From NCBI GenBank assembly GCA_937903605.1, contig CALCZC010000025.1, positions 206,618 to 270,617 of the forward strand: a stretch of 64,000 bases of DNA, given 5' to 3'. The notes below the pieces were generated by a model. That model saw nothing but the letters and a program-made list of their open reading frames with translations. It did no database searches and was not told the origin of the DNA. Both the position numbers and the translations under genes were made by a program. Source of the stretch: an uncultured bacterium (GTDB lineage Bacteria > Patescibacteriota > Patescibacteriia > Magasanikbacterales > GWA2-37-8). Positions 2,224-49,794 of this stretch are shown piece by piece (the first letter of the stretch is position 1; each line of letters starts with the position of its first letter).

Positions 2224-3291
2224 TTATTCTGTAACAGTTGTTTCGCTGGCGCTCACTTCAAAAGGATTATGAATTTTGGAATAAAATCTTATTTCTGCGT
2301 TCTTTAGATAATCATCCATGTATTTTTCAAAGCTTGGTAAAAGAAATAAAATATGACTGGCTTTAACTTTTGGTTCGTTTACCCAAACACCGCTTTCATT
2401 TTTTACTCTTTCTGTTTTAGTATCATAAACTTTCACAATATGATAACCGAATTCTGTTTCTACCAAATCTTTTGCTAATTCACCTTTTTTCAAAGCAAAA
2501 ACCGCTTCTTCAAATTGTGGAATCATTTCTCCTTTTCCAAACCACCCCAAATCACCGCCTGTTTGTTTAGTACCATCTTCACCATGCAAAGCGGCCATTT
2601 CTGCAAAATCAGCACCATTTTTGATTTCTTCCAAAACTCCTTCGGCTTTTTGTCTGATTTGAAGTAATGCTTCTTTGTCGGTTTGAATAAGTTCATTAAC
2701 TTTATTCTGTAAAACAAAGGGTCTGATAACCTTGGCTTCATAAGCAGACATATTCCAACCATAACGCTTGATCAATTCTTTTTCCAATTCCGCTTCAGAA
2801 TCAAATTGCTGCAAAACCTCTTCTTTCAATTTTGCAATATCTTCCTTTTCCACTTTTACCCCGAGTTTATCAGCCACTTGAGCAACCATCTTATTATTTA
2901 CTAAACGCCAAATAACCTGGTCCGACATCTGATCTGCAGTTAATTCATAAACCGCACCTTCATTGTTTGTTTCTTCATAGGTTTTCATGGTTTGAATAGC
3001 TTCCATATCATCTAGGTAGTCGACATAGGAAATTTTTTGCCCATTAACCGAGATTAAAGATAAATGCATAAACTTGGCAGAATAATAAGCAAACGTGTCG
3101 GTTGCTCCTGCACGCACTCGTATAAACCCAAAAATTCCAGCAATCACTATAGCGCCGATAATCAAAGCGCCAAAACCATATAAAAAAATCTGTTTATTTT
3201 TTGAAACTATGTTGTTATCTTGAACAACCGTTTCACCGGCTTCTTTTTTCTCCTCTACGGGTAAATTTTGTTTTTCGTTTGAATTTTCCAT
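2224..3291 (-). CDS. membrane-anchored parvulin-type peptidyl-prolyl cis-trans isomerase (PrsA/SurA/PpiD-like)
   Basis: N-terminal TM helix; C-terminal PpiC rotamase motif GGDLGWFGKGEMIPQFEEAVF...GYHIVKV. Confidence 0.7.
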   Translation of the reverse strand: MENSNEKQNLPVEEKKEAGETVVQDNNIVSKNKQIFLYGFGALIIGAIVIAGIFGFIRVRAGATDTFAYYSAKFMHLSLISVNGQKISYVDYLDDMEAIQTMKTYEETNNEGAVYELTADQMSDQVIWRLVNNKMVAQVADKLGVKVEKEDIAKLKEEVLQQFDSEAELEKELIKRYGWNMSAYEAKVIRPFVLQNKVNELIQTDKEALLQIRQKAEGVLEEIKNGADFAEMAALHGEDGTKQTGGDLGWFGKGEMIPQFEEAVFALKKGELAKDLVETEFGYHIVKVYDTKTERVKNESGVWVNEPKVKASHILFLLPSFEKYMDDYLKNAEIRFYSKIHNPFEVSASETTVTE

Positions 3292-21429: not shown

Positions 21430-22262
21430 TCGCTCAAATTGACGAAAAGACCCCTGTGTCTTCAGTCAAATCGGCGAAAGTTCGTTTCAAAACACCAAAA
21501 CCCGCTCGCCAAGGAGGTTCAGATGAACCGTACGAGAGATCGACCGTAAATTTCCCGGTCCAAAACTGAGATCTTTTTTTTAAGAAAACGTCGCAGATCC
21601 AGTAGGACAAATCTCATCGGCAAAGTTCGGTTTTCCAGGACATGTTCCCGGAAGCCTTAACCTGAACCGCCCAATCGGCGCGCCAAACAGCGCAATAAAG
21701 CGCAGGAGGTGTAGGATGTCCAGCATCCGCGATGGTCCCAAGTAATACAATCGTAACTGAACAACCATCTACGAAAAAAGTTTTGATGTTCCGTTCCTCC
21801 CGCCGTCGCCGACGCCTAGAATGGCGCCCCGTGCCCCGGCTTTCGTGGCACTTTTCCGGCGGGTTAAACACGCGAAGGCTAAACGGCATGTCGACGAGGT
21901 TAGGGTCGAGAGATTTCGACCTGGGCTACGTTTTTTTGTACCTCGCGGCAAAGACCGTTTTGGCCCATATCCGGCGTCAGGTCAGCCTCTCTGTAACTTT
22001 TGGAAATGTGTTCCTATGTCCAAGTGACGAGGAGACACTTTCCACTTTCAAAAAAGTTAGAGAGGCTGACACGCCGAGCGAAAATTGCGGATAAACCGGA
22101 TCAGCTTAAAAAACCGGTGATCTCCGCACCAACGTCAAGGCGATTTCTAGGCTTCCGGATCGCCCACGGCTCATCTGCCGTGTACAGTGAAGTCACATTT
22201 TCCCCGGTCTGCGATCAACAACTGAGCGCTCAGTGTTGATTCGCAGCCGGGGCGTTTTTTTT
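21430..22262 (+). ncRNA. large (~0.83 kb) GC-rich structured non-coding RNA of unknown class, flanked by tRNA-Pro genes
   Basis: GC ~50% against ~33% background; only overlapping Arg-rich pseudo-ORFs on both strands; bounded by a consensus promoter and a strong terminator; many local and long-range helices; internal hairpin plus T8 at 21533-21580. Confidence 0.6.
22201..22262 (+). terminator. strong intrinsic terminator (~24-bp interrupted stem followed by T9)
   Basis: CCCCGGTCTGCGATCAACAACTGAGCG / CGCTCAGTGTTGATTCGCAGCCGGGG then CGTTTTTTTTT. Confidence 0.8.
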
Positions 22263-22342
22263 ACATACGAATAAATAGATACTAATATACAAATTGTACT
22301 AATGATACGAATGCTATACGAAAATTTATACGAATGAACAAA

Positions 22343-22417
22343 TTTTAGATTTATGATTTTTGATTTATGAATTACCGTTTTTGTCATTCTAAAATCTGCA
22401 ATCTAAAATCTGAAATT
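22343..22417 (+). repeat. ~75-bp AT-rich composite repeat, copy A (TTTAGATTTATGATTTTTGATTTATGAATTAC...TGTCATTCTAAAATCTGCAATCTAAAATCT)
   Basis: 7-bp periodicity; near-identical copies at 24216-24293, 26158-26234 (inverted) and 49671-49794. Confidence 0.7.
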
Positions 22418-22464
22418 AGTTAATCTTTCAATCTTTAAATCTTGTAATCTTTAAATTTTTTACC

Positions 22465-22493
22465 TTGCAATCTTGCAATTCATTTTATATAAT
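22465..22493 (+). promoter_or_regulatory. promoter TTGCAA-N17-TATAAT for the U32 peptidase gene (places the TSS within ~2 nt of the ATG; possibly leaderless)
   Basis: -10 ends 8 nt before ATG 22502. Confidence 0.45.
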
Positions 22494-24869: not shown

Positions 24870-24904
24870 AAATTAATTATTAGAAATATTGAATATTAAA
24901 TATT

Positions 24905-24975
24905 GGATATTAACCACCCCTCGCCCCTCCTTCGTAAGGAGGGGAAAATATTCAATATCCAGTATTCAGTATTAA
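24905..24975. repeat. GC hairpin element CCCCTCCTT-CGT-AAGGAGGGG flanked by inverted AATATTGAATATT repeats, copy 1
   Basis: Core at 24924-24944; second copy at 48257-48276; three tandem variants in-frame inside rarA at 48877-48971. Confidence 0.65.
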
Positions 24976-26024
24976 ATATTTTGTTTATTTTTTCTCGCCA
25001 ACCAAAAACCCAAACACAGCATAGCCACACACAACAATCCCAAAACCAAAAGCTTTTGCCAGCTTTGTAAAAATAAAGTAGTAAAACCAAAGGCAAAAGC
25101 AATGATATAAAATAATATTACACTTTGACGATGGCCCAGTCCTGCATCAACAAGTTGAAAATGCAGATGTCGTCTATCGCCTTTATAAAAAGGTTGTTTG
25201 TGTAAAATCCTCATGAAAATAACTCGCGCTAAATCCAAAATCGGAATTGCCATTACCAAAAGTGCGGTAGCAATTTTTCCGCCAGCGATAACTGCGAGTA
25301 CTCCAAGCAGAAATCCGAGCAGTAATGATCCACCTTCGCCCAAAAATATTTTTGCCGGATAAAAATTAAAAAATAAAAATCCCAAACATGCACCTGCCAA
25401 AATCAAAGCTAACGTGGCAGTTTCAGGTTGAAAAAATTTGGCAGTATTGGAAAGTGAAGCGATCATCAAAGCACCGATAAAAACTATCCCTGTAGTTAAA
25501 CCATCCAGACCGTCCAAAATTTTTGTAGTGTACATCATCCCGAGTAACCAGAAAAAAACTATTAGATCAGCTAAAATAAAAATATGACCGTAGCCAAATA
25601 AATCAAGCCCAAAAATTTCCAAATTAATAATTCCACCAAAAGGATTTGTGACCATTTGTAAATCTACTCCACCAAGTACAGCGATAGCTATAGCCGCGCA
25701 AGTTATCATTAATCTTTTCTTGGCTGATAAATTTTCTTTATCATCAAAAAATCCCAAAATCATCAAAATGACACTTCCCAAAAATACCCCTATAAATTCA
25801 CGAGGTTCAATATGGCGATGAAAAATATCGGTAAAAAAAGACAAATACCCTACTACTGACCAAAAACTCAAAAATATTGCCAAACCGCCCAAAAGTGGAA
25901 CATTGCGACCGTGAAGTTTGCGAATTCCTTCGGGTTTATCCACAATATCCAATTTTTTAGCTAATTTTAGCGTAAAAAATGTAAAAATAAGGGATAATAT
26001 GAAAGTTATAAGAAAATATTGCAT
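24972..26024 (-). CDS. GT4-family polyprenyl-phosphate N-acetylhexosamine-1-phosphate transferase (WecA/TagO/MraY family; WecA-like by N-terminus)
   Basis: 350 aa, ~10 TM; KLDIVDKPEGIRKLHGRNVPLLGGLAIF resembles the WecA N-terminus. An MraY assignment cannot be excluded by eye. Confidence 0.6.
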   Translation of the reverse strand: MQYFLITFILSLIFTFFTLKLAKKLDIVDKPEGIRKLHGRNVPLLGGLAIFLSFWSVVGYLSFFTDIFHRHIEPREFIGVFLGSVILMILGFFDDKENLSAKKRLMITCAAIAIAVLGGVDLQMVTNPFGGIINLEIFGLDLFGYGHIFILADLIVFFWLLGMMYTTKILDGLDGLTTGIVFIGALMIASLSNTAKFFQPETATLALILAGACLGFLFFNFYPAKIFLGEGGSLLLGFLLGVLAVIAGGKIATALLVMAIPILDLARVIFMRILHKQPFYKGDRRHLHFQLVDAGLGHRQSVILFYIIAFAFGFTTLFLQSWQKLLVLGLLCVAMLCLGFWLARKNKQNI

Positions 26025-27553: not shown

Positions 27554-27604
27554 AGTATTAAGTATTATGTATTAAGTATTAAGTATTAAGTATTATGTAT
27601 TTTT

Positions 27605-27678
27605 TGTCATTCCCGCGAAGGCGGGAATCCAGTGGCCGTTTTGATTTTTCCTGGATCCCCGCCTTCGCGGGGATGACA
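27605..27678. repeat. GC-rich nested-hairpin palindromic element (TGTCATTCCCGC-GAAG-GCGGGAATCCAG ... CTGGATCCCCGC-CTTC-GCGGGGATGACA)
   Basis: ~28-bp terminal inverted arms, each itself an 8-bp GC hairpin with a tetraloop; related copies at 42790, 46690, 47491 and 51009. Confidence 0.7.
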
Positions 27679-27699
27679 CTTTATATCACTTTATAAACT

Positions 27700-43957: not shown

Positions 43958-44434
43958 GATTTAAAGATTGAAAGATTTAAAGATTGTTAAATTGTGTAAC
44001 TATTTTTTGTAATGTAAATTATCCAACAAATAACTACGAAAATTCGATAAATGGGTAGAAATCTTGTATATTTCTTCAATTAAATTTTCTGCTGTTTTAT
44101 TTTCTATATAATTATTATCCAATAAAATATATAGAATCGTTCTGACTTCTCCAGCTGAACCTTTGGCAATATTTATAAAATTAGCAAATTCTTTATTTGA
44201 ACTTCTTTCAAAACCTTCAGCTATATTTAAAGAGATTGAATAGGTCGCTCTTTTTAATTGATCACAGATAGAATAGTCCTTTTTTAATTTTTGATTATCG
44301 TCAATCAACTTATAAATATTAGCAACAAATTTTCTTGAAATTTGCCAAATTGGAATATCTTCAAATTTTTTATACTGCATACCCTCCCTTATTAATTAAA
44401 TTTTTAATCTTTAAATCTTTCAATCTTTAAATCT
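43958..44434 (-). mobile_element. cassette with perfect ~29-bp inverted repeats bracketing a second four-helix-bundle protein gene
   Basis: GATTTAAAGATTGAAAGATTTAAAGATT at 43958-43987; its exact reverse complement AATCTTTAAATCTTTCAATCTTTAAATC at 44406-44434. Confidence 0.6.
44000..44380 (-). CDS. four helix bundle protein (TIGR02436; 23S rRNA IVS protein family), second copy
   Basis: 126 aa; ...ATYSISLNIAEGFER...GSAGEVRTILY... family signature. Confidence 0.8.
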   Translation of the reverse strand: MQYKKFEDIPIWQISRKFVANIYKLIDDNQKLKKDYSICDQLKRATYSISLNIAEGFERSSNKEFANFINIAKGSAGEVRTILYILLDNNYIENKTAENLIEEIYKISTHLSNFRSYLLDNLHYKK

Positions 44435-44441
44435 TGCAATT

Positions 44442-46478
44442 TTACTCGCCCGCTGGCGTAGCCATAATCTGTGCAATAATATTATTTTCATTTTCTGTAA
44501 AAGTTACTCCGTTTTGCTGTGCTAATTGCAAAATATTTAAAGCCTTTTCATTTTCTCCGGCGATTTTATAAACATAAGCCAAACGCCAATAGCTTTCACC
44601 AATTTTAGCATTATCTTTTATCGCTCCGTCAAGCAATTTGATAGCGTCGTTAAATTTACCCATCTGCATCTGCAACATAGAAAGCGAATAAATCAACTGC
44701 TGACGGCGCGGTGATTTATTCAGCGCATCTTTGAGATAATTTTCCGCTTCCGCCATTTTTTGTGGATCATTATTAAGTTGTGCCATCACTTGCGCCATTT
44801 GCGACAGAGTCATCTGATTGCGAATGTCTAGGGGGTGAAGATCTGTATTTTTATGCAGTTCCGTAAAACAAACATCTAGGATTTTTTTTAAGAAATCTTT
44901 TTGTGCTTGTTGATTTTGCATCACGGTATAAGCGATTTGCACTACGGAACGAGAGATATCACTCCTGATATCATCAATATGCGGAGATTGAAAATGCAAT
45001 GCATCCTCCACTACACTCAACGCTATGGTCGGATTTTGATTGAGCGCTTTGATGGCAGTGAGAGATTTACTATTAGCACGAGCGGGTTGAAGATTAAAAA
45101 TTAAGATAAAGATTAAGACCAAAATTCCAGCTACAGAAACCGCACCAAAAGAAATGTTTTTATTAACTGAAGCAACTTTTTCAGTATTTTCATCCGGAAG
45201 CAAAGTAAGACGAGAAACCATAGCCAGCACGAACATAAAATAAATATATGAAGTCAAGTTTTCAAATACTGTAATATTTTCCACCAAATGCGAAATCACA
45301 TAGACTGATAAAACAATAAACAAAATCAAATCAATGTGTTTTTTGCGATACGCGATAGTAAGCGAAAAGAAAGCAATAGCAAAAAGTAGTAGATATACCA
45401 AAATACCAAATGTCCCCTGTACTGCCATAGTGTTGAGTACTATGTTGTGCGCATTATCAAACCAAGTTTCACCATATCCATGATCAAGAGATAGTGGGTT
45501 GTAATGAGTATTAAAAACATAAAAATAGTTGTTTGGTCCCCAACCAAAAACCGGTCTATCTTGCCAACCTTGCAGAGCTATTTTCCAAGCAATCCAACGA
45601 GGAGAAGCTTTGATATCAGAATATGAAGTATTGATAGCACGACCAACAGCTGGAATATTTCGGACAAAATCAGTTTGACGATTCAGATATAAAACTCCGA
45701 ATAACAAGGCAAAAGCTATAAGAGACCCCCAGAGATAAATTTTGGCTTTTGGATTATTTCTAAGTGAAACTGCTAATAAAAAGATGGTAAGCGGAATAGC
45801 TATACCCAAAGCCAAGATATCACCACGGGTACCGGAGAAAAAAATGTTGGCAAAAGCTAACAAAAACATCCCGCCCAAAATCCAACGCCAATACTGCTCC
45901 TTTTCCTTGATAAAAAGCAAAATCGCCATTGACGATAAAAACAAAGCATAACCACCCACATAAATAGGGTTCCCCAATGTACTGGCGACACGATCAGAAC
46001 CTTGGTTGAGTAGTAAATCCGGGTTGCCAACTTGTAAAAACCCGACAAACATCACGCCCATACCGGCGGTCAGGAAAACTTTTAAAGCCAAGCGGTAATC
46101 CGCCCAGGTCTGGAGTACCGCACCGACAATGTAAAAATAAATTACATAATGAGTAATAGTAAAAAACCCGAGCATGCGTTCGTGGTTATCCCAAAAACTA
46201 TGATAAGGGTCTACACCCAAAAAAGTAGAAAGTCCGAAACTGAGCCAAAACAAAAATACAGCGATATTTACCGGGGTAAATTTAGGTTTAAATTCTTTAA
46301 AATCTAAAATCAAAAGTAAACTATAAAGCCCAAGCATCACCATGACTATGGAACGGAAGGCCAAAATCTTTGGCACGATGAAGGGAAAAATAAATGAGCT
46401 TGGAAGTACGATAAGCGGAACGAAAAAACTGGCGTAAATTAGCAGTTTTATCGCCAAAATTACTTTGTCTTTAGACAT
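44442..46478 (-). CDS. O-antigen ligase (Wzy_C) family membrane protein with C-terminal TPR repeats
   Basis: 678 aa; ~12 TM N-terminal half; C-terminal ~250 aa of TPR-like helices. Confidence 0.55.
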   Translation of the reverse strand: MSKDKVILAIKLLIYASFFVPLIVLPSSFIFPFIVPKILAFRSIVMVMLGLYSLLLILDFKEFKPKFTPVNIAVFLFWLSFGLSTFLGVDPYHSFWDNHERMLGFFTITHYVIYFYIVGAVLQTWADYRLALKVFLTAGMGVMFVGFLQVGNPDLLLNQGSDRVASTLGNPIYVGGYALFLSSMAILLFIKEKEQYWRWILGGMFLLAFANIFFSGTRGDILALGIAIPLTIFLLAVSLRNNPKAKIYLWGSLIAFALLFGVLYLNRQTDFVRNIPAVGRAINTSYSDIKASPRWIAWKIALQGWQDRPVFGWGPNNYFYVFNTHYNPLSLDHGYGETWFDNAHNIVLNTMAVQGTFGILVYLLLFAIAFFSLTIAYRKKHIDLILFIVLSVYVISHLVENITVFENLTSYIYFMFVLAMVSRLTLLPDENTEKVASVNKNISFGAVSVAGILVLIFILIFNLQPARANSKSLTAIKALNQNPTIALSVVEDALHFQSPHIDDIRSDISRSVVQIAYTVMQNQQAQKDFLKKILDVCFTELHKNTDLHPLDIRNQMTLSQMAQVMAQLNNDPQKMAEAENYLKDALNKSPRRQQLIYSLSMLQMQMGKFNDAIKLLDGAIKDNAKIGESYWRLAYVYKIAGENEKALNILQLAQQNGVTFTENENNIIAQIMATPAGE

Positions 46479-46589: not shown

Positions 46590-46689
46590 TAGCATAATCT
46601 GATATTTCAGATTTATGATTTCAGATTGATGATTTCAGATTTATGATTAATAAATATTGGATATTAGAATATTAGATATTAAAATAATA

Positions 46690-46854
46690 TGTCATTCCCG
46701 CCTCCGAGCGGGAATCCAGTAGTTCGTCATTCTGAATTTATTTCAGGATCTCCCTTTTGTGGCTCAGTAGGGAGATGCCGAAACAAGTTCGGCATGACAC
46801 TTTGTGCTAATTTTTCCTGGATCCCCGCCTTCGCGGGGATGACACAACCTGTCA
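46690..46854. repeat. composite/nested GC-rich palindromic element (TGTCATTCCCGC...GCGGGGATGACA with an internal GTCATTCTGAAT...GGCATGACAC element)
   Basis: Same conserved termini as 27605-27678, with a second element nested between the arms. Confidence 0.65.
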
Positions 46855-48168: not shown

Positions 48169-48229
48169 AAAAAATTTATAAATTTCAAGATTTAAAGATT
48201 AAAAGATTGAAAGATTTTGATATTGGATA

Positions 48230-48295
48230 TTGAATATTAAATATTAACCACCCCTACCCCTCCTTCGTAAGGAGGGTAATATCCAGTATTCAATA
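48230..48295. repeat. GC hairpin element CCCCTCCTT-CGT-AAGGAGGG with flanking AATATT repeats, copy 2
   Basis: Core at 48257-48276; same as 24924-24944. Confidence 0.65.
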
Positions 48296-48303
48296 TTCAT
48301 TAT

Positions 48304-49653
48304 TTATTTTCGCAAGTATTTTTTATTTTTCAACTCTTCCGGCAAATATTCTTGATCAACAGGTCCGGTGTGATCCGGATTATATTTATAACCATCACCA
48401 TAACCGATATCTTTCATAAAACCCGTCACTGCATTGCGCAGGTGAAGTGGTACACCCAGATGAGAAGTATTTTCCGCATCTTTCATCGCCTTTTCATAAG
48501 CCACATACAACAAATTGGACTTGGTGGATTTGGCGCAATAAACTACAGCTTGAGCTAGATGAACTCCGCATTCAGGCATACCCAAACGATGACAAGCGTC
48601 GTACGCGGCATTGGCTTGGATAAGCGCTTCGCCATTGGCCATACCAATATCCTCACTGGCAAATCTGACCACTCGTCGCGCCACATAAAGAGGATCGGCT
48701 CCACCCTGCAACATTCGAGCTAACCAATAAATAGCAGCATCCGGATCGCTACCGCGCATAGATTTGTGTAGCGCGGAAATGAGGTTATAAAATTCCTCTC
48801 CTTGTTTATCAAAAACCACGTTTACTTTTTGTGCCGCTTCTTTAACAATTTCTTTGGTGATGTCTACCTCACCCCGCCCCTCTCCTTTTAAAGGAGAGGG
48901 TGACTGACCTCCCCCCGCCCCTCCTTCGTAAGGAGGGGATAATTGTCCCTCCTCTCCTTGCGAAGGAGAGGATTGAGGTGAGGTCTTCACCGCTAACTCC
49001 AAAATATTCAATGCTGTCCGCGCATCACCACCGGAAAAAAAGACGATACTTTTAATCACCTCATCATCAATTTTTATTTTTATATCTCCCAATCCTCGCT
49101 CTTTGTCCATCAACGCTCTTTTTATCACTTGAACCAAATCCTCTTCACCAAGAGATTTCAAAACAAAAACTCGCGAACGAGAAAGTAAAGCGCGAATAAT
49201 TTCAAACGAAGGATTTTCCGTAGTAGCGCCGATAAGAATTATTTCTCCCTGTTCTACATAAGGCAATAATGCATCTTGTTGGGCTTTATTCCAACGATGA
49301 ATTTCATCAATAAATAGAATAGTGCGCAAATTTTCTTTTTCTTTTTTTTCTTTGGCCACTATTACTGCCTGACGCAACTCTTCTTTACCGCTCATCACCG
49401 CAGATAGTTGAATAAAGTGAGATTTTGTTTTAGTGGCAATAATTTTGGCCAAAGTTGTTTTACCTACTCCCGGTGGTCCCCAAAAAATCAATGAAGTTAA
49501 ATCATCGCTTTCTATCAAACGGCGCAATATCTTACCCTGACCCACGATATCGGCCTGTCCAAAAAATCCGTCAAAATCAAGAGGACGCATACGCTCGGCG
49601 AGAGGAACAGAGTTTGTTGCTACAGTTTGAATTTTGTTCTGTTTAGGAGACAT
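48304..49653 (-). CDS. rarA: replication-associated recombination protein A (RarA/MgsA AAA+ ATPase) with ~40-aa low-complexity insertion
   Basis: GPPGVGKTTLA, DEIHRWNKAQQD, C-terminal MgsA_C; the insertion SPSQGEEGQLSPPYEGGAGGGQSPSPLKGEGRGE is encoded by three tandem GC hairpin repeats. Confidence 0.85.
   Translation of the reverse strand: MSPKQNKIQTVATNSVPLAERMRPLDFDGFFGQADIVGQGKILRRLIESDDLTSLIFWGPPGVGKTTLAKIIATKTKSHFIQLSAVMSGKEELRQAVIVAKEKKEKENLRTILFIDEIHRWNKAQQDALLPYVEQGEIILIGATTENPSFEIIRALLSRSRVFVLKSLGEEDLVQVIKRALMDKERGLGDIKIKIDDEVIKSIVFFSGGDARTALNILELAVKTSPQSSPSQGEEGQLSPPYEGGAGGGQSPSPLKGEGRGEVDITKEIVKEAAQKVNVVFDKQGEEFYNLISALHKSMRGSDPDAAIYWLARMLQGGADPLYVARRVVRFASEDIGMANGEALIQANAAYDACHRLGMPECGVHLAQAVVYCAKSTKSNLLYVAYEKAMKDAENTSHLGVPLHLRNAVTGFMKDIGYGDGYKYNPDHTGPVDQEYLPEELKNKKYLRK
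48877..48971. repeat. three tandem GC hairpin repeats (CCCTCTCCTTT-T-AAAGGAGAGGG; CCCCTCCTT-CGT-AAGGAGGGG; CCTCTCCTT-GCG-AAGGAGAGG) in-frame inside rarA
   Basis: Same family as the intergenic copies at 24924 and 48257. Confidence 0.65.
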
Positions 49654-49670
49654 AATCTTTATAAAAAATA

Positions 49671-49794
49671 TTTTAGATTTATGATTTATGATTTAAGAAT
49701 TATGAATTATGTAACAAAATACAAAATATTACAAAATTACAAAAAAGATAAGTTGTCCTGTCATTCTAAAATCTGCATTCTAAAATCTAAAATT
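49671..49794 (+). repeat. AT-rich composite repeat, copy D (with a ~45-bp internal insertion)
   Basis: TTTTAGATTTATGATTTATG...TGTCATTCTAAAATCTGCATTCTAAAATCTAAAATTC. Confidence 0.65.

Follow-up and report, generated by a model that had tools for sequence, protein, structure and literature searches.

The DNA considered here is a 64,000-nucleotide stretch of contig CALCZC010000025.1 (assembly GCA_937903605.1, positions 206,618 to 270,617), referred to below as the window, which has a GC content of 35% and finds its best protein matches in Candidatus Magasanikbacteria and other Patescibacteria. On its minus strand lies the DNA-repair gene rarA/mgsA, whose reading frame is extended by a block of three short GC-rich repeat units, with two further units of this type standing between genes. 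The RarA product contains the AAA+ module, AAA lid, MgsA_C domain, and conserved Walker motifs of the RarA/MgsA family, with GPPGxGKTT and DEIHR present without variation in the RarA alignment. E. coli MgsA (PDB 3PVS) matches it with E = 1.5e-107, the match covering residues 16-222 and 264-446, and the Pfam match to AAA_assoc_2 spreads 109 residues over 78 profile positions. The insert codes for residues T224-V263 (TSPQSSPSQGEEGQ LSPPYEGGAGGGQ SPSPLKGEGRGEV) and, in the 3PVS alignment, takes the place of an 11-residue loop (220-230) of E. coli MgsA. Its site is inside the AAA lid domain (AAA_assoc_2, residues 192-300), and not between the AAA+ module and MgsA_C where an earlier, sequence-only reading of this DNA had placed it.

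The hairpin CCCCTCCTTCGTAAGGAGGGG, for which zero matches are expected by chance in the window, occurs as exact copies at 24924-24944 and 48918-48938 and with one mismatch at 48257-48277, confirming the earlier report of one hairpin at two intergenic sites and within rarA. Perfect hairpins of related sequence lie at 48878-48900 and 48950-48972, and all three rarA hairpins fall within the 449-residue open reading frame (ORF) with the frame kept. Each of these hairpins is accompanied by a third G/T(A) arm that mirrors its purine arm, with G opposite G and T or A opposite A (the mirror rule), giving units of 31-36 nt. The sequence-only reading had described three tandem in-frame variants at 48877-48971; the hairpins are located correctly and the frame is indeed kept, but the array is not a simple tandem one, as one unit is inverted, and the limits widen to 48865-48985 once the third arms are included. 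The features are as follows.

48304-49653, minus strand: rarA/mgsA, host of the insert, 449 aa, taken from the open reading frame list; Pfam domains AAA 55-162, AAA_assoc_2 192-300, and MgsA_C 301-447
48865-48985, minus strand: the whole in-frame insert, 121 bp, three triplex-motif units
48865-48900, minus strand: rarA unit C, CCCTCTCCTT taa AAGGAGAGGG gcg GGGTGAGGTA; mirror rule 10/10 (G.G, A/T.A)
48906-48938, minus strand: rarA unit B, CCCCTCCTT acg AAGGAGGGG cgg GGGGAGGTC; mirror rule 8/9
48950-48985, plus strand: rarA unit A, TCCTCTCCTT gcg AAGGAGAGGA ttg AGGTGAGGTC; mirror rule 9/10
48246-48276, minus strand: intergenic unit 3' of rarA, CCCTCCTT acg AAGGAGGG gtag GGGTGGTT; mirror rule 8/8
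24912-24944, minus strand: intergenic unit after ORF 24972-26024, CCCCTCCTT acg AAGGAGGGG cga GGGGTGGTT; mirror rule 9/9

The coding strand of rarA is the G-rich strand of units B and C, the hairpin of unit B being identical to the intergenic copy at 24924, while unit A is inverted with respect to both and has its G-rich strand on the template. The outer arm of unit A is complementary to the outer arm of unit C, forming an inverted repeat, so that the block would fold as a closed three-hairpin structure. Folding of the insert gives a minimum free energy of -70 kcal/mol as RNA (z = -6.4) and about -35 kcal/mol as DNA (z about -6). At the protein level, AlphaFold assigns a pLDDT (predicted local distance difference test) below 50 to residues 229-260, between helix 211-224 and strand 263-265, the segment being predicted to be disordered by a model that is itself shallow (28 sequences, mean pLDDT 63). 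The other GC-rich islands of the window contain no triplex unit in any further gene. The host sequence directly 5' of the insert on the coding strand (48986-48994, GCGGTGAAG/A) contains GGTGA, as does the same position in loci L003 and L044; this GGTGA is complementary to TCACC of the adjoining unit arm and resembles the third-arm motif GGTGAGG, a likeness that could be due to chance or to microhomology used in insertion.

The build of these units corresponds to that of an intrastrand triplex motif. Holder et al. 2015 (PMC4666352) define the class II purine motif as a pyrimidine stem, loop, purine stem, loop, and reverse-Hoogsteen arm, with stems of 6-15 nt, no more than one mismatch, and loops of 1-6 nt. 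All five window units follow this order in a single strand, with stems of 8-10 nt, loops of 3 nt and 3-4 nt, and an antiparallel third arm that would give G.G-C, A.A-T, or T.A-T triads, and they carry the sequence signature of a class II purine-motif intrastrand triplex of the BoxC/PIT/TM class. A scan of one genome per prokaryotic species with CCCCTCCTT-NNN-AAGGAGGGG as the query returned at least 120 loci, and among the matches listed the unit type is abundant and mostly intergenic across dozens of phyla, including Chlamydiota, Acidobacteriota, Nitrospirota, Bacteroidota, Gammaproteobacteria, Planctomycetota, Chloroflexota, and many Patescibacteria. Most loci listed have (A)ACCACCCC or ACCTCCCC attached to one side of the hairpin, with the G-rich strand reading hairpin, 2-4 nt, and then GGGGTGGTT or GGGGAGGT, and here too the extra arm is a mirror of the purine arm.

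With a mirror arm called at a rule match of at least 88%, 127 loci yielded such an arm on one side of 105 of 152 canonical hairpins and 63 of 96 other pyrimidine-purine hairpins, with canonical-hairpin controls (an arm far away, or direct rather than mirrored) giving calls at just 2-5% of hairpin sides. Furthermore, the third arm covaries with its hairpin. Across 23 distinct arm sequences the match was 7.6/8 to a hairpin's own arm and 4.9/8 to other arms, a value reached in 0 of 10,000 permutations, with AAGGGGAGG paired with GGTGGGGTA, AAAGGGGGA with AGGGGGATT, and GGGAGAGGG with GGGTGAGGG. The third arm has T 336 times, A 157 times, C 28 times, and G 11 times opposite A, and G 1047 times against 16 occurrences of another base opposite G, with both loops having a modal length of 3 nt. 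Inspection by eye shows that the third and pyrimidine arms do not pair by Watson-Crick rules, and a G-quadruplex reading leaves the mirrored A/T positions unexplained. Rfam searches of the window at the gathering threshold, and of eight repeat-rich loci at E <= 1, returned just tRNAs and meaningless long-hairpin microRNA models, with no known RNA family fitting the units, and searches of the literature for the arm sequences as text strings returned unrelated matches only. In a locus of Thiomargarita sp. (L076, 7128-7312), complete units run head to tail with a 41-nt period and no spacers, with inverted doublets nearby; this genome gave several of the scan loci and seems very rich in triplex units.

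The closest described relatives are the BoxC/PIT/TM_ECO elements of Hoyne & Maher (2000, 2002), as cited in Holder et al. 2015 (PMC4666352). TM_ECO has a 9-nt C-stem, a loop of 3-6 nt, a 9-nt G-stem, a 3-nt loop, and a second 9-nt G-stem (PMC4666352), and the units presented here likewise have a C-rich stem, a 3-6-nt loop, a G-rich stem, a loop of ~3 nt, and a mirroring second G-rich arm, with stems of 8-10 nt. Both occur as single units and as inverted 'palindromic' doublets, both are tied to local instability, and neither has a known linked transposase, with some units of the fetched loci (GGGAGAGGG / GGGTGAGGG) matching the TM_ECO consensus itself. The window arms, however, comprising CCCCTCCTT/AAGGAGGGG and CC(C/T)TCTCCTT/AAGGAGAGG(G/A), miss the strict consensus 5'-CCCTCNCCC N3-6 GGGNGAGGG N3 GGGNGAGGG-3', the layout being related and the arm sequence different. 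Whilst TM_ECO in E. coli K-12 is 'always located intergenically' (PMC4666352), three of the five window units lie inside rarA and more than 25 in-gene cases are found elsewhere. The setting also differs, the window host being a 35% GC member of the Patescibacteria with its intergenic units embedded in AT-rich heptamer arrays.

At the rarA site the insert is lineage-specific and unstable. The proposal of the sequence-only reading that a dispersed repeat had colonised a RarA loop in-frame is borne out, with the insert absent from E. coli MgsA and from the close orthologs P0005-P0008, P0010, P0012, and P0013 (the close orthologs compared being about 80-97% identical), and with an empty site seen at the DNA level in loci L001 and L006. 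Three units are present in the window, in L004, and in L005, and proteins P0002 and P0003 have the same three; L002 and protein P0001 have extra units and a nested hairpin of 20 nt, and L003 and L007, like proteins P0004 and P0009, have a different inverted doublet at the same codon. Where the site is filled by more than three units, their number comes to about five. The copy number of the units varies among near-identical rarA alleles, and filled, empty, and differently filled alleles are interleaved in a RarA tree built from the flanking sequence. A blind hairpin scan additionally returned an unrelated Patescibacteria contig (L044) that is itself rarA, with another doublet placed after the same AVK codon. 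The loop surpasses its modal length by 8 aa or more in 21 of the 91 close RarA homologs in which the anchor residues are clear, and these extensions are mostly repeat-type peptides of many different sequences. All variants at the site are in-frame and stop-free, with the window and L004 differing in the insert by a 3-nt indel that keeps the frame. We infer that the lid loop of rarA tolerates insertion and is a hot spot for it.

The units also enter other genes. In the genome sample, complete in-frame units were found, among the matches listed, in seven Pfam-verified genes, namely CysRS (Phycisphaerae), RarA, Lgt, a beta-CASP metallo-beta-lactamase, a GT2 glycosyltransferase, UDP-glucose dehydrogenase, and FemAB. 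A metagenome scan with the lineage's own unit CCTCTCCTTnnnAAGGAGAGGnnnnnGGTGAGGT as the query gave at least 120 loci and at least 132 units, and among the matches listed the frame of 36 of 132 units stays open across 60 or more codons in both directions, these 36 including 24 of the 94 units in loci below 45% GC. When the ORFs of the low-GC loci were tested against Pfam, 20 of 21 proved to be real genes. These serve repair and maintenance (RecG, UvrB, UvrC, SMC, HsdR), translation and RNA processing (ValRS, KsgA at two sites, peptide deformylase, CCA/poly(A) polymerase), and metabolism and the envelope (DHFR, Lgt, PPDK_N, a TPP enzyme, an acyl-CoA dehydrogenase protein), with others being a Ser/Thr kinase, NAGPA, and T9SS- and PKD-type proteins. 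No fewer than 12 of these genes give a single Pfam match that runs across the unit and exceeds the profile by about the length of the insert. Complete in-frame units are found in at least 25 Pfam-verified genes besides rarA.

Long ORFs over units in the GC-rich loci L031, L079, L087, L090, L092, and L122 were rejected as spurious, having no Pfam support or having the unit upstream of the real gene. A FemAB-family gene in a metagenome-assembled genome labelled uncultured Gammaproteobacteria (L121, 2378-3538) has four separate repeat-derived segments (TTPNPSLLRRGGETLPLNKGEMEGV; SSPFKGGVRRGKEK...PPLAGGD; TPSRSPSERGRQ; CSPPLTKGGSGGV), in a locus that also has a masked run of N. A second GC-hairpin family (TGTCATTCCCGCGAAGGCGGGAATCCAG ... 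CCTGGATCCCCGCCTTCGCGGGGATGACA) is present in the window as MITE-like inverted pairs at 27597-27680 and 46692-46845, the 46692 copy having nested hairpins; its typical peptide CHSRENGNP is found in-frame in the UDP-glucose dehydrogenase of L107, and this family may also enter genes.

Among the matches listed in the metagenome sample, the in-gene units are read in the following frames.

C-rich coding strand, frame 0: TSPxPSPxxGEG, 16 in-gene units
C-rich coding strand, frame 1: PHPxPLLxKER, 8 in-gene units
G-rich coding strand, frame 0: PLLxKERxxVRS, 5 in-gene units
G-rich coding strand, frame 2: SPSPxxGEGxGEV type, 1 in-gene unit
C-rich coding strand, frame 2: LTxxLSFxRR, 0 in-gene units

The unused LTxxLSFxRR frame is stop-free in 99 of the 132 units listed. 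This skew in frame use, together with the frame-preserving 3-nt indel of L004 and the stop-free variants, argues for translation of the in-gene segments and for their filtering by selection acting on the encoded peptide.

In-frame insertion of palindromic DNA has a precedent in the Rickettsia palindromic elements (RPEs; Ogata et al. 2000), which are about 100-150 bp long, encode a conserved peptide, and form ten Rickettsia-specific families (PMC10969869). As described there, RPEs resemble the units presented here in being palindromic selfish repeats that sit in-frame in unrelated housekeeping genes of a small genome, and are translated and compatible with the fold of the host protein, a likeness of shared behaviour and not of membership. 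In contrast to RPEs, the units are 31-36 nt long, have a three-part mirror build, occur in many phyla, and bear no sequence relationship to those elements; their peptides depend on frame and orientation, and the window host belongs to the Patescibacteria. The units are therefore placed outside the RPE families. No report of triplex-motif units in genes or in Patescibacteria was found in the searchable literature beyond Holder et al. 2015 and work on RPEs and MITEs, which is not proof of novelty. Neither the repeat class nor in-frame palindromic insertion is new in itself, and it is their combination that appears to be unreported. The three-part repeat, the inverted unit, and the wider in-frame colonisation of genes had all been overlooked by the sequence-only reading.

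The two intergenic units of the window stand in AT-rich surroundings, in agreement with the AATATT-type flanks noticed earlier, with the unit at 48246-48276 lying within AATATTG-type heptamer arrays (48220-48245 and 48277-48304) and that at 24912-24944 flanked by heptamer arrays at 24884-24913 and 24947-24980. The arrangement of unit and heptamers 3' of rarA is also present in L007. These units start exactly 27 nt past a stop codon, the spacers being 24945-24971, 48277-48303, and 2377-2403 of L007, and in all three cases, of which two are orthologous (rarA 3' ends) and one follows another gene, the G-rich strand is the mRNA strand. One possible reason for the 27-nt spacing is that the units belong to a larger composite element, some 90 nt long, whose inverted arms are AT-rich. 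A reading of both intergenic units as intrinsic terminators was discarded, the terminator scan giving no call because no U-run follows the hairpin.

Nearly all intergenic regions of the window contain short tandem arrays of AT-rich 7-8-nt units (AATATTG, AGTATTA, TTTATGA, AAAGATTT, AATCTTTC), within which the GC-rich units sit, with examples at 22342-22479, 24884-24980, 27554-27601, 44396-44444, 46604-46686, 48170-48217, and 49670-49711. Structured small dispersed repeats (SDR) of 21-27 nt, often nested and often set in tandem heptamer repeats, were reportedly described by Elhai and colleagues in 2008 from Nostoc and other cyanobacteria, and this heptamer setting is like that of the intergenic units, the likeness being one of description only. 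Two other features of the window stand apart from the units. The region 21644-21867, of about 60% GC or more, adjoins a tRNA gene and overlaps the start of ORF 21732-22094; it has no Rfam match even at permissive thresholds and may be an unrecognised structured RNA or foreign DNA. A perfect hairpin at 2193-2217 (CCCCGCCCC-ttttatt-GGGGCGGGG), between the tRNA gene 2116-2186 and the stop of ORF 2224-3291, lacks a mirror arm and could be terminator-like.

We consider it probable that the units are a selfish, unstable triplex-motif repeat that is tolerated in permissive loops of rarA and other genes. The units have sharp boundaries, variable loops, and unrelated contexts, and are arranged singly, as inverted doublets, or in tandem arrays, with viral contigs yielding just 6 stretches among 2.9 million, a result that speaks against carriage by phages; TM_ECO has itself been tied to local instability (Holder et al. 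2015; PMC4666352). As selfish or unstable DNA, such units would spread and expand by structure-induced replication slippage or template switching, or alternatively by an enzyme, and their survival within genes would require an added length divisible by three, unit loops without stop codons, and a solvent-exposed loop as the site. The homopurine/homopyrimidine arms would provide no stop codons in most frames and would code for flexible Pro/Ser/Leu and Gly/Glu/Lys/Arg stretches, so that the product would be a benign disordered loop, and the repeat may be tolerated in loops because arms of this composition cannot form stop codons. Survival of multiple-of-three copies in exposed loops would in turn give rise to recurrent hot spots such as the RarA lid loop. 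The rarA insert is most likely neutral or slightly deleterious baggage with no new function.

Movement of the units could instead be attributed to a dedicated single-strand DNA transposase (RAYT/IS200-like) acting on a REP- or MITE-like element, with the third arm serving as a protein-recognition tag. REP/REPIN elements are mobilised by RAYT transposases (PMC3116915), with REPs tagged by GTAG/CGTC (PMC3733652), and the units resemble them as 20-40-nt GC-rich hairpins dispersed in many copies, singly or as inverted doublets. The sharp boundaries and unrelated contexts, the frequency of REPIN-like inverted doublets, and the sharing of the same arms across phyla would all suit a transposase. However, the units have no GTAG/CGTC tag, the hairpin is adjoined by a variable loop and a mirror arm, and the outer flanks are random, and whereas REPs are extragenic by definition, the units are also found in genes. 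Single units lack terminal inverted repeats and target-site duplications, and so fall outside the MITEs. Furthermore, changes in the hairpin are matched in the third arm according to the mirror rule, A and T being equivalent, and a fixed tag would not predict this; no transposase or integrase remnants lie near the E. coli copies according to Holder et al. (PMC4666352). On balance, a dedicated transposase is unlikely.

Exaptation of the repeat, as suggested by the sequence-only reading, would mean that the inserted peptide now functions in RarA, for example as an interaction motif or by lengthening a flexible hinge that joins the lid to the C-terminal domain. The retention of the insert in-frame in several related lineages, the extended loop in 21 of 91 close homologs, and the preference of in-gene frame use for particular peptide types are in keeping with this, but peptide sequence, length, and unit orientation differ among lineages, copy number varies among near-identical alleles, and orthologs as close as P0005 do without the insert. 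The segment is also predicted, with very low model confidence, to be disordered, and the same peptides are found in unrelated proteins. A function of this kind is very unlikely, and the suggestion is not supported.

A further possibility is a role in cis, in which the units would act as nucleic acid, by pausing replication or transcription, by affecting mRNA stability, or through an internal Shine-Dalgarno-like (AAGGAGG) ribosome pause that tunes rarA, with the intergenic copies being terminator- or attenuator-like. The stability of the predicted RNA and DNA structures, the presence of AAGGAGG in the purine arms, and the placement of intergenic copies at 27 nt past stops in one orientation (twice in the window and in L007) speak for such a role. 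Against this, the units are not called as intrinsic terminators, both orientations are present in rarA and in other genes, close orthologs manage without them, and E. coli PIT/TM elements have neither promoter nor terminator activity (PMC4666352), leaving a cis role with very little chance of being correct.

The converse origin offered by the sequence-only reading, in which the intergenic copies would derive from the segment, itself an ancestral linker of RarA, has the sequence identity of the hairpins in its favour and nothing else, and is refuted by the absence of the segment from E. coli MgsA and most close orthologs and by the abundance of mostly intergenic units across dozens of phyla. 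A sequencing or assembly artefact, a concern raised for 48870-48980 and understandable for GC-rich hairpins in an AT-rich genome, is likewise refuted, since the same or variant in-frame inserts recur beyond this NCBI assembly in four other independent assemblies (L002 from Logan, L004 and L005 from ENA/JGI, and the JGI contig behind P0002), two assemblies being identical to each other.

Several points weigh against the reading of the units as selfish DNA tolerated in permissive loops. Among the in-gene cases, several are orthologous duplicates, so that the number of independent events is about 22 and not 30. The units show no target-site duplication, conserved flank, or target motif, with 116 of 129 having no adjacent direct repeat. 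That insertions recur at one rarA codon could be a sign of targeting and not simply of tolerance, and the GGTGAAG of the host just before the insert, which resembles a third arm, hints in the same direction. Additionally, the TM_ECO triplex forms in isolated single strands in vitro, with dimethyl sulphate (DMS) footprinting in vivo giving no support for a stable form (PMC4666352).

A more far-reaching view, which we put forward only tentatively, is that these ~33-36-nt units are among the smallest mobile DNA elements, copied in a manner that depends on a triplex or on single strands. They would then colonise genes in-frame systematically in Patescibacteria and other uncultivated bacteria, returning to the loops of RarA, Lgt, KsgA, and DHFR, and would be a general and hitherto undescribed source of disordered insertions in housekeeping proteins, possibly with targeting of particular sites.

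The units at rarA join two things known separately, the intrastrand triplex repeats of bacteria, which have been described as intergenic and have no known function, and in-frame selfish DNA of the Rickettsia style. An element of ~35 nt would in this way be able to lengthen essential proteins, repeatedly at the same loops, and would account for the odd Pro/Ser/Gly/Glu-rich inserts and spurious ORFs that are common in metagenome assemblies, with practical use in annotation and in the masking of alignments. Covariation of the mirror arm is strong across phyla, an argument that either the three-stranded fold or a reader of that fold is of importance in vivo, a question dating from the PIT and TM_ECO studies, and the natural filled and empty alleles at one rarA codon offer a ready test system.

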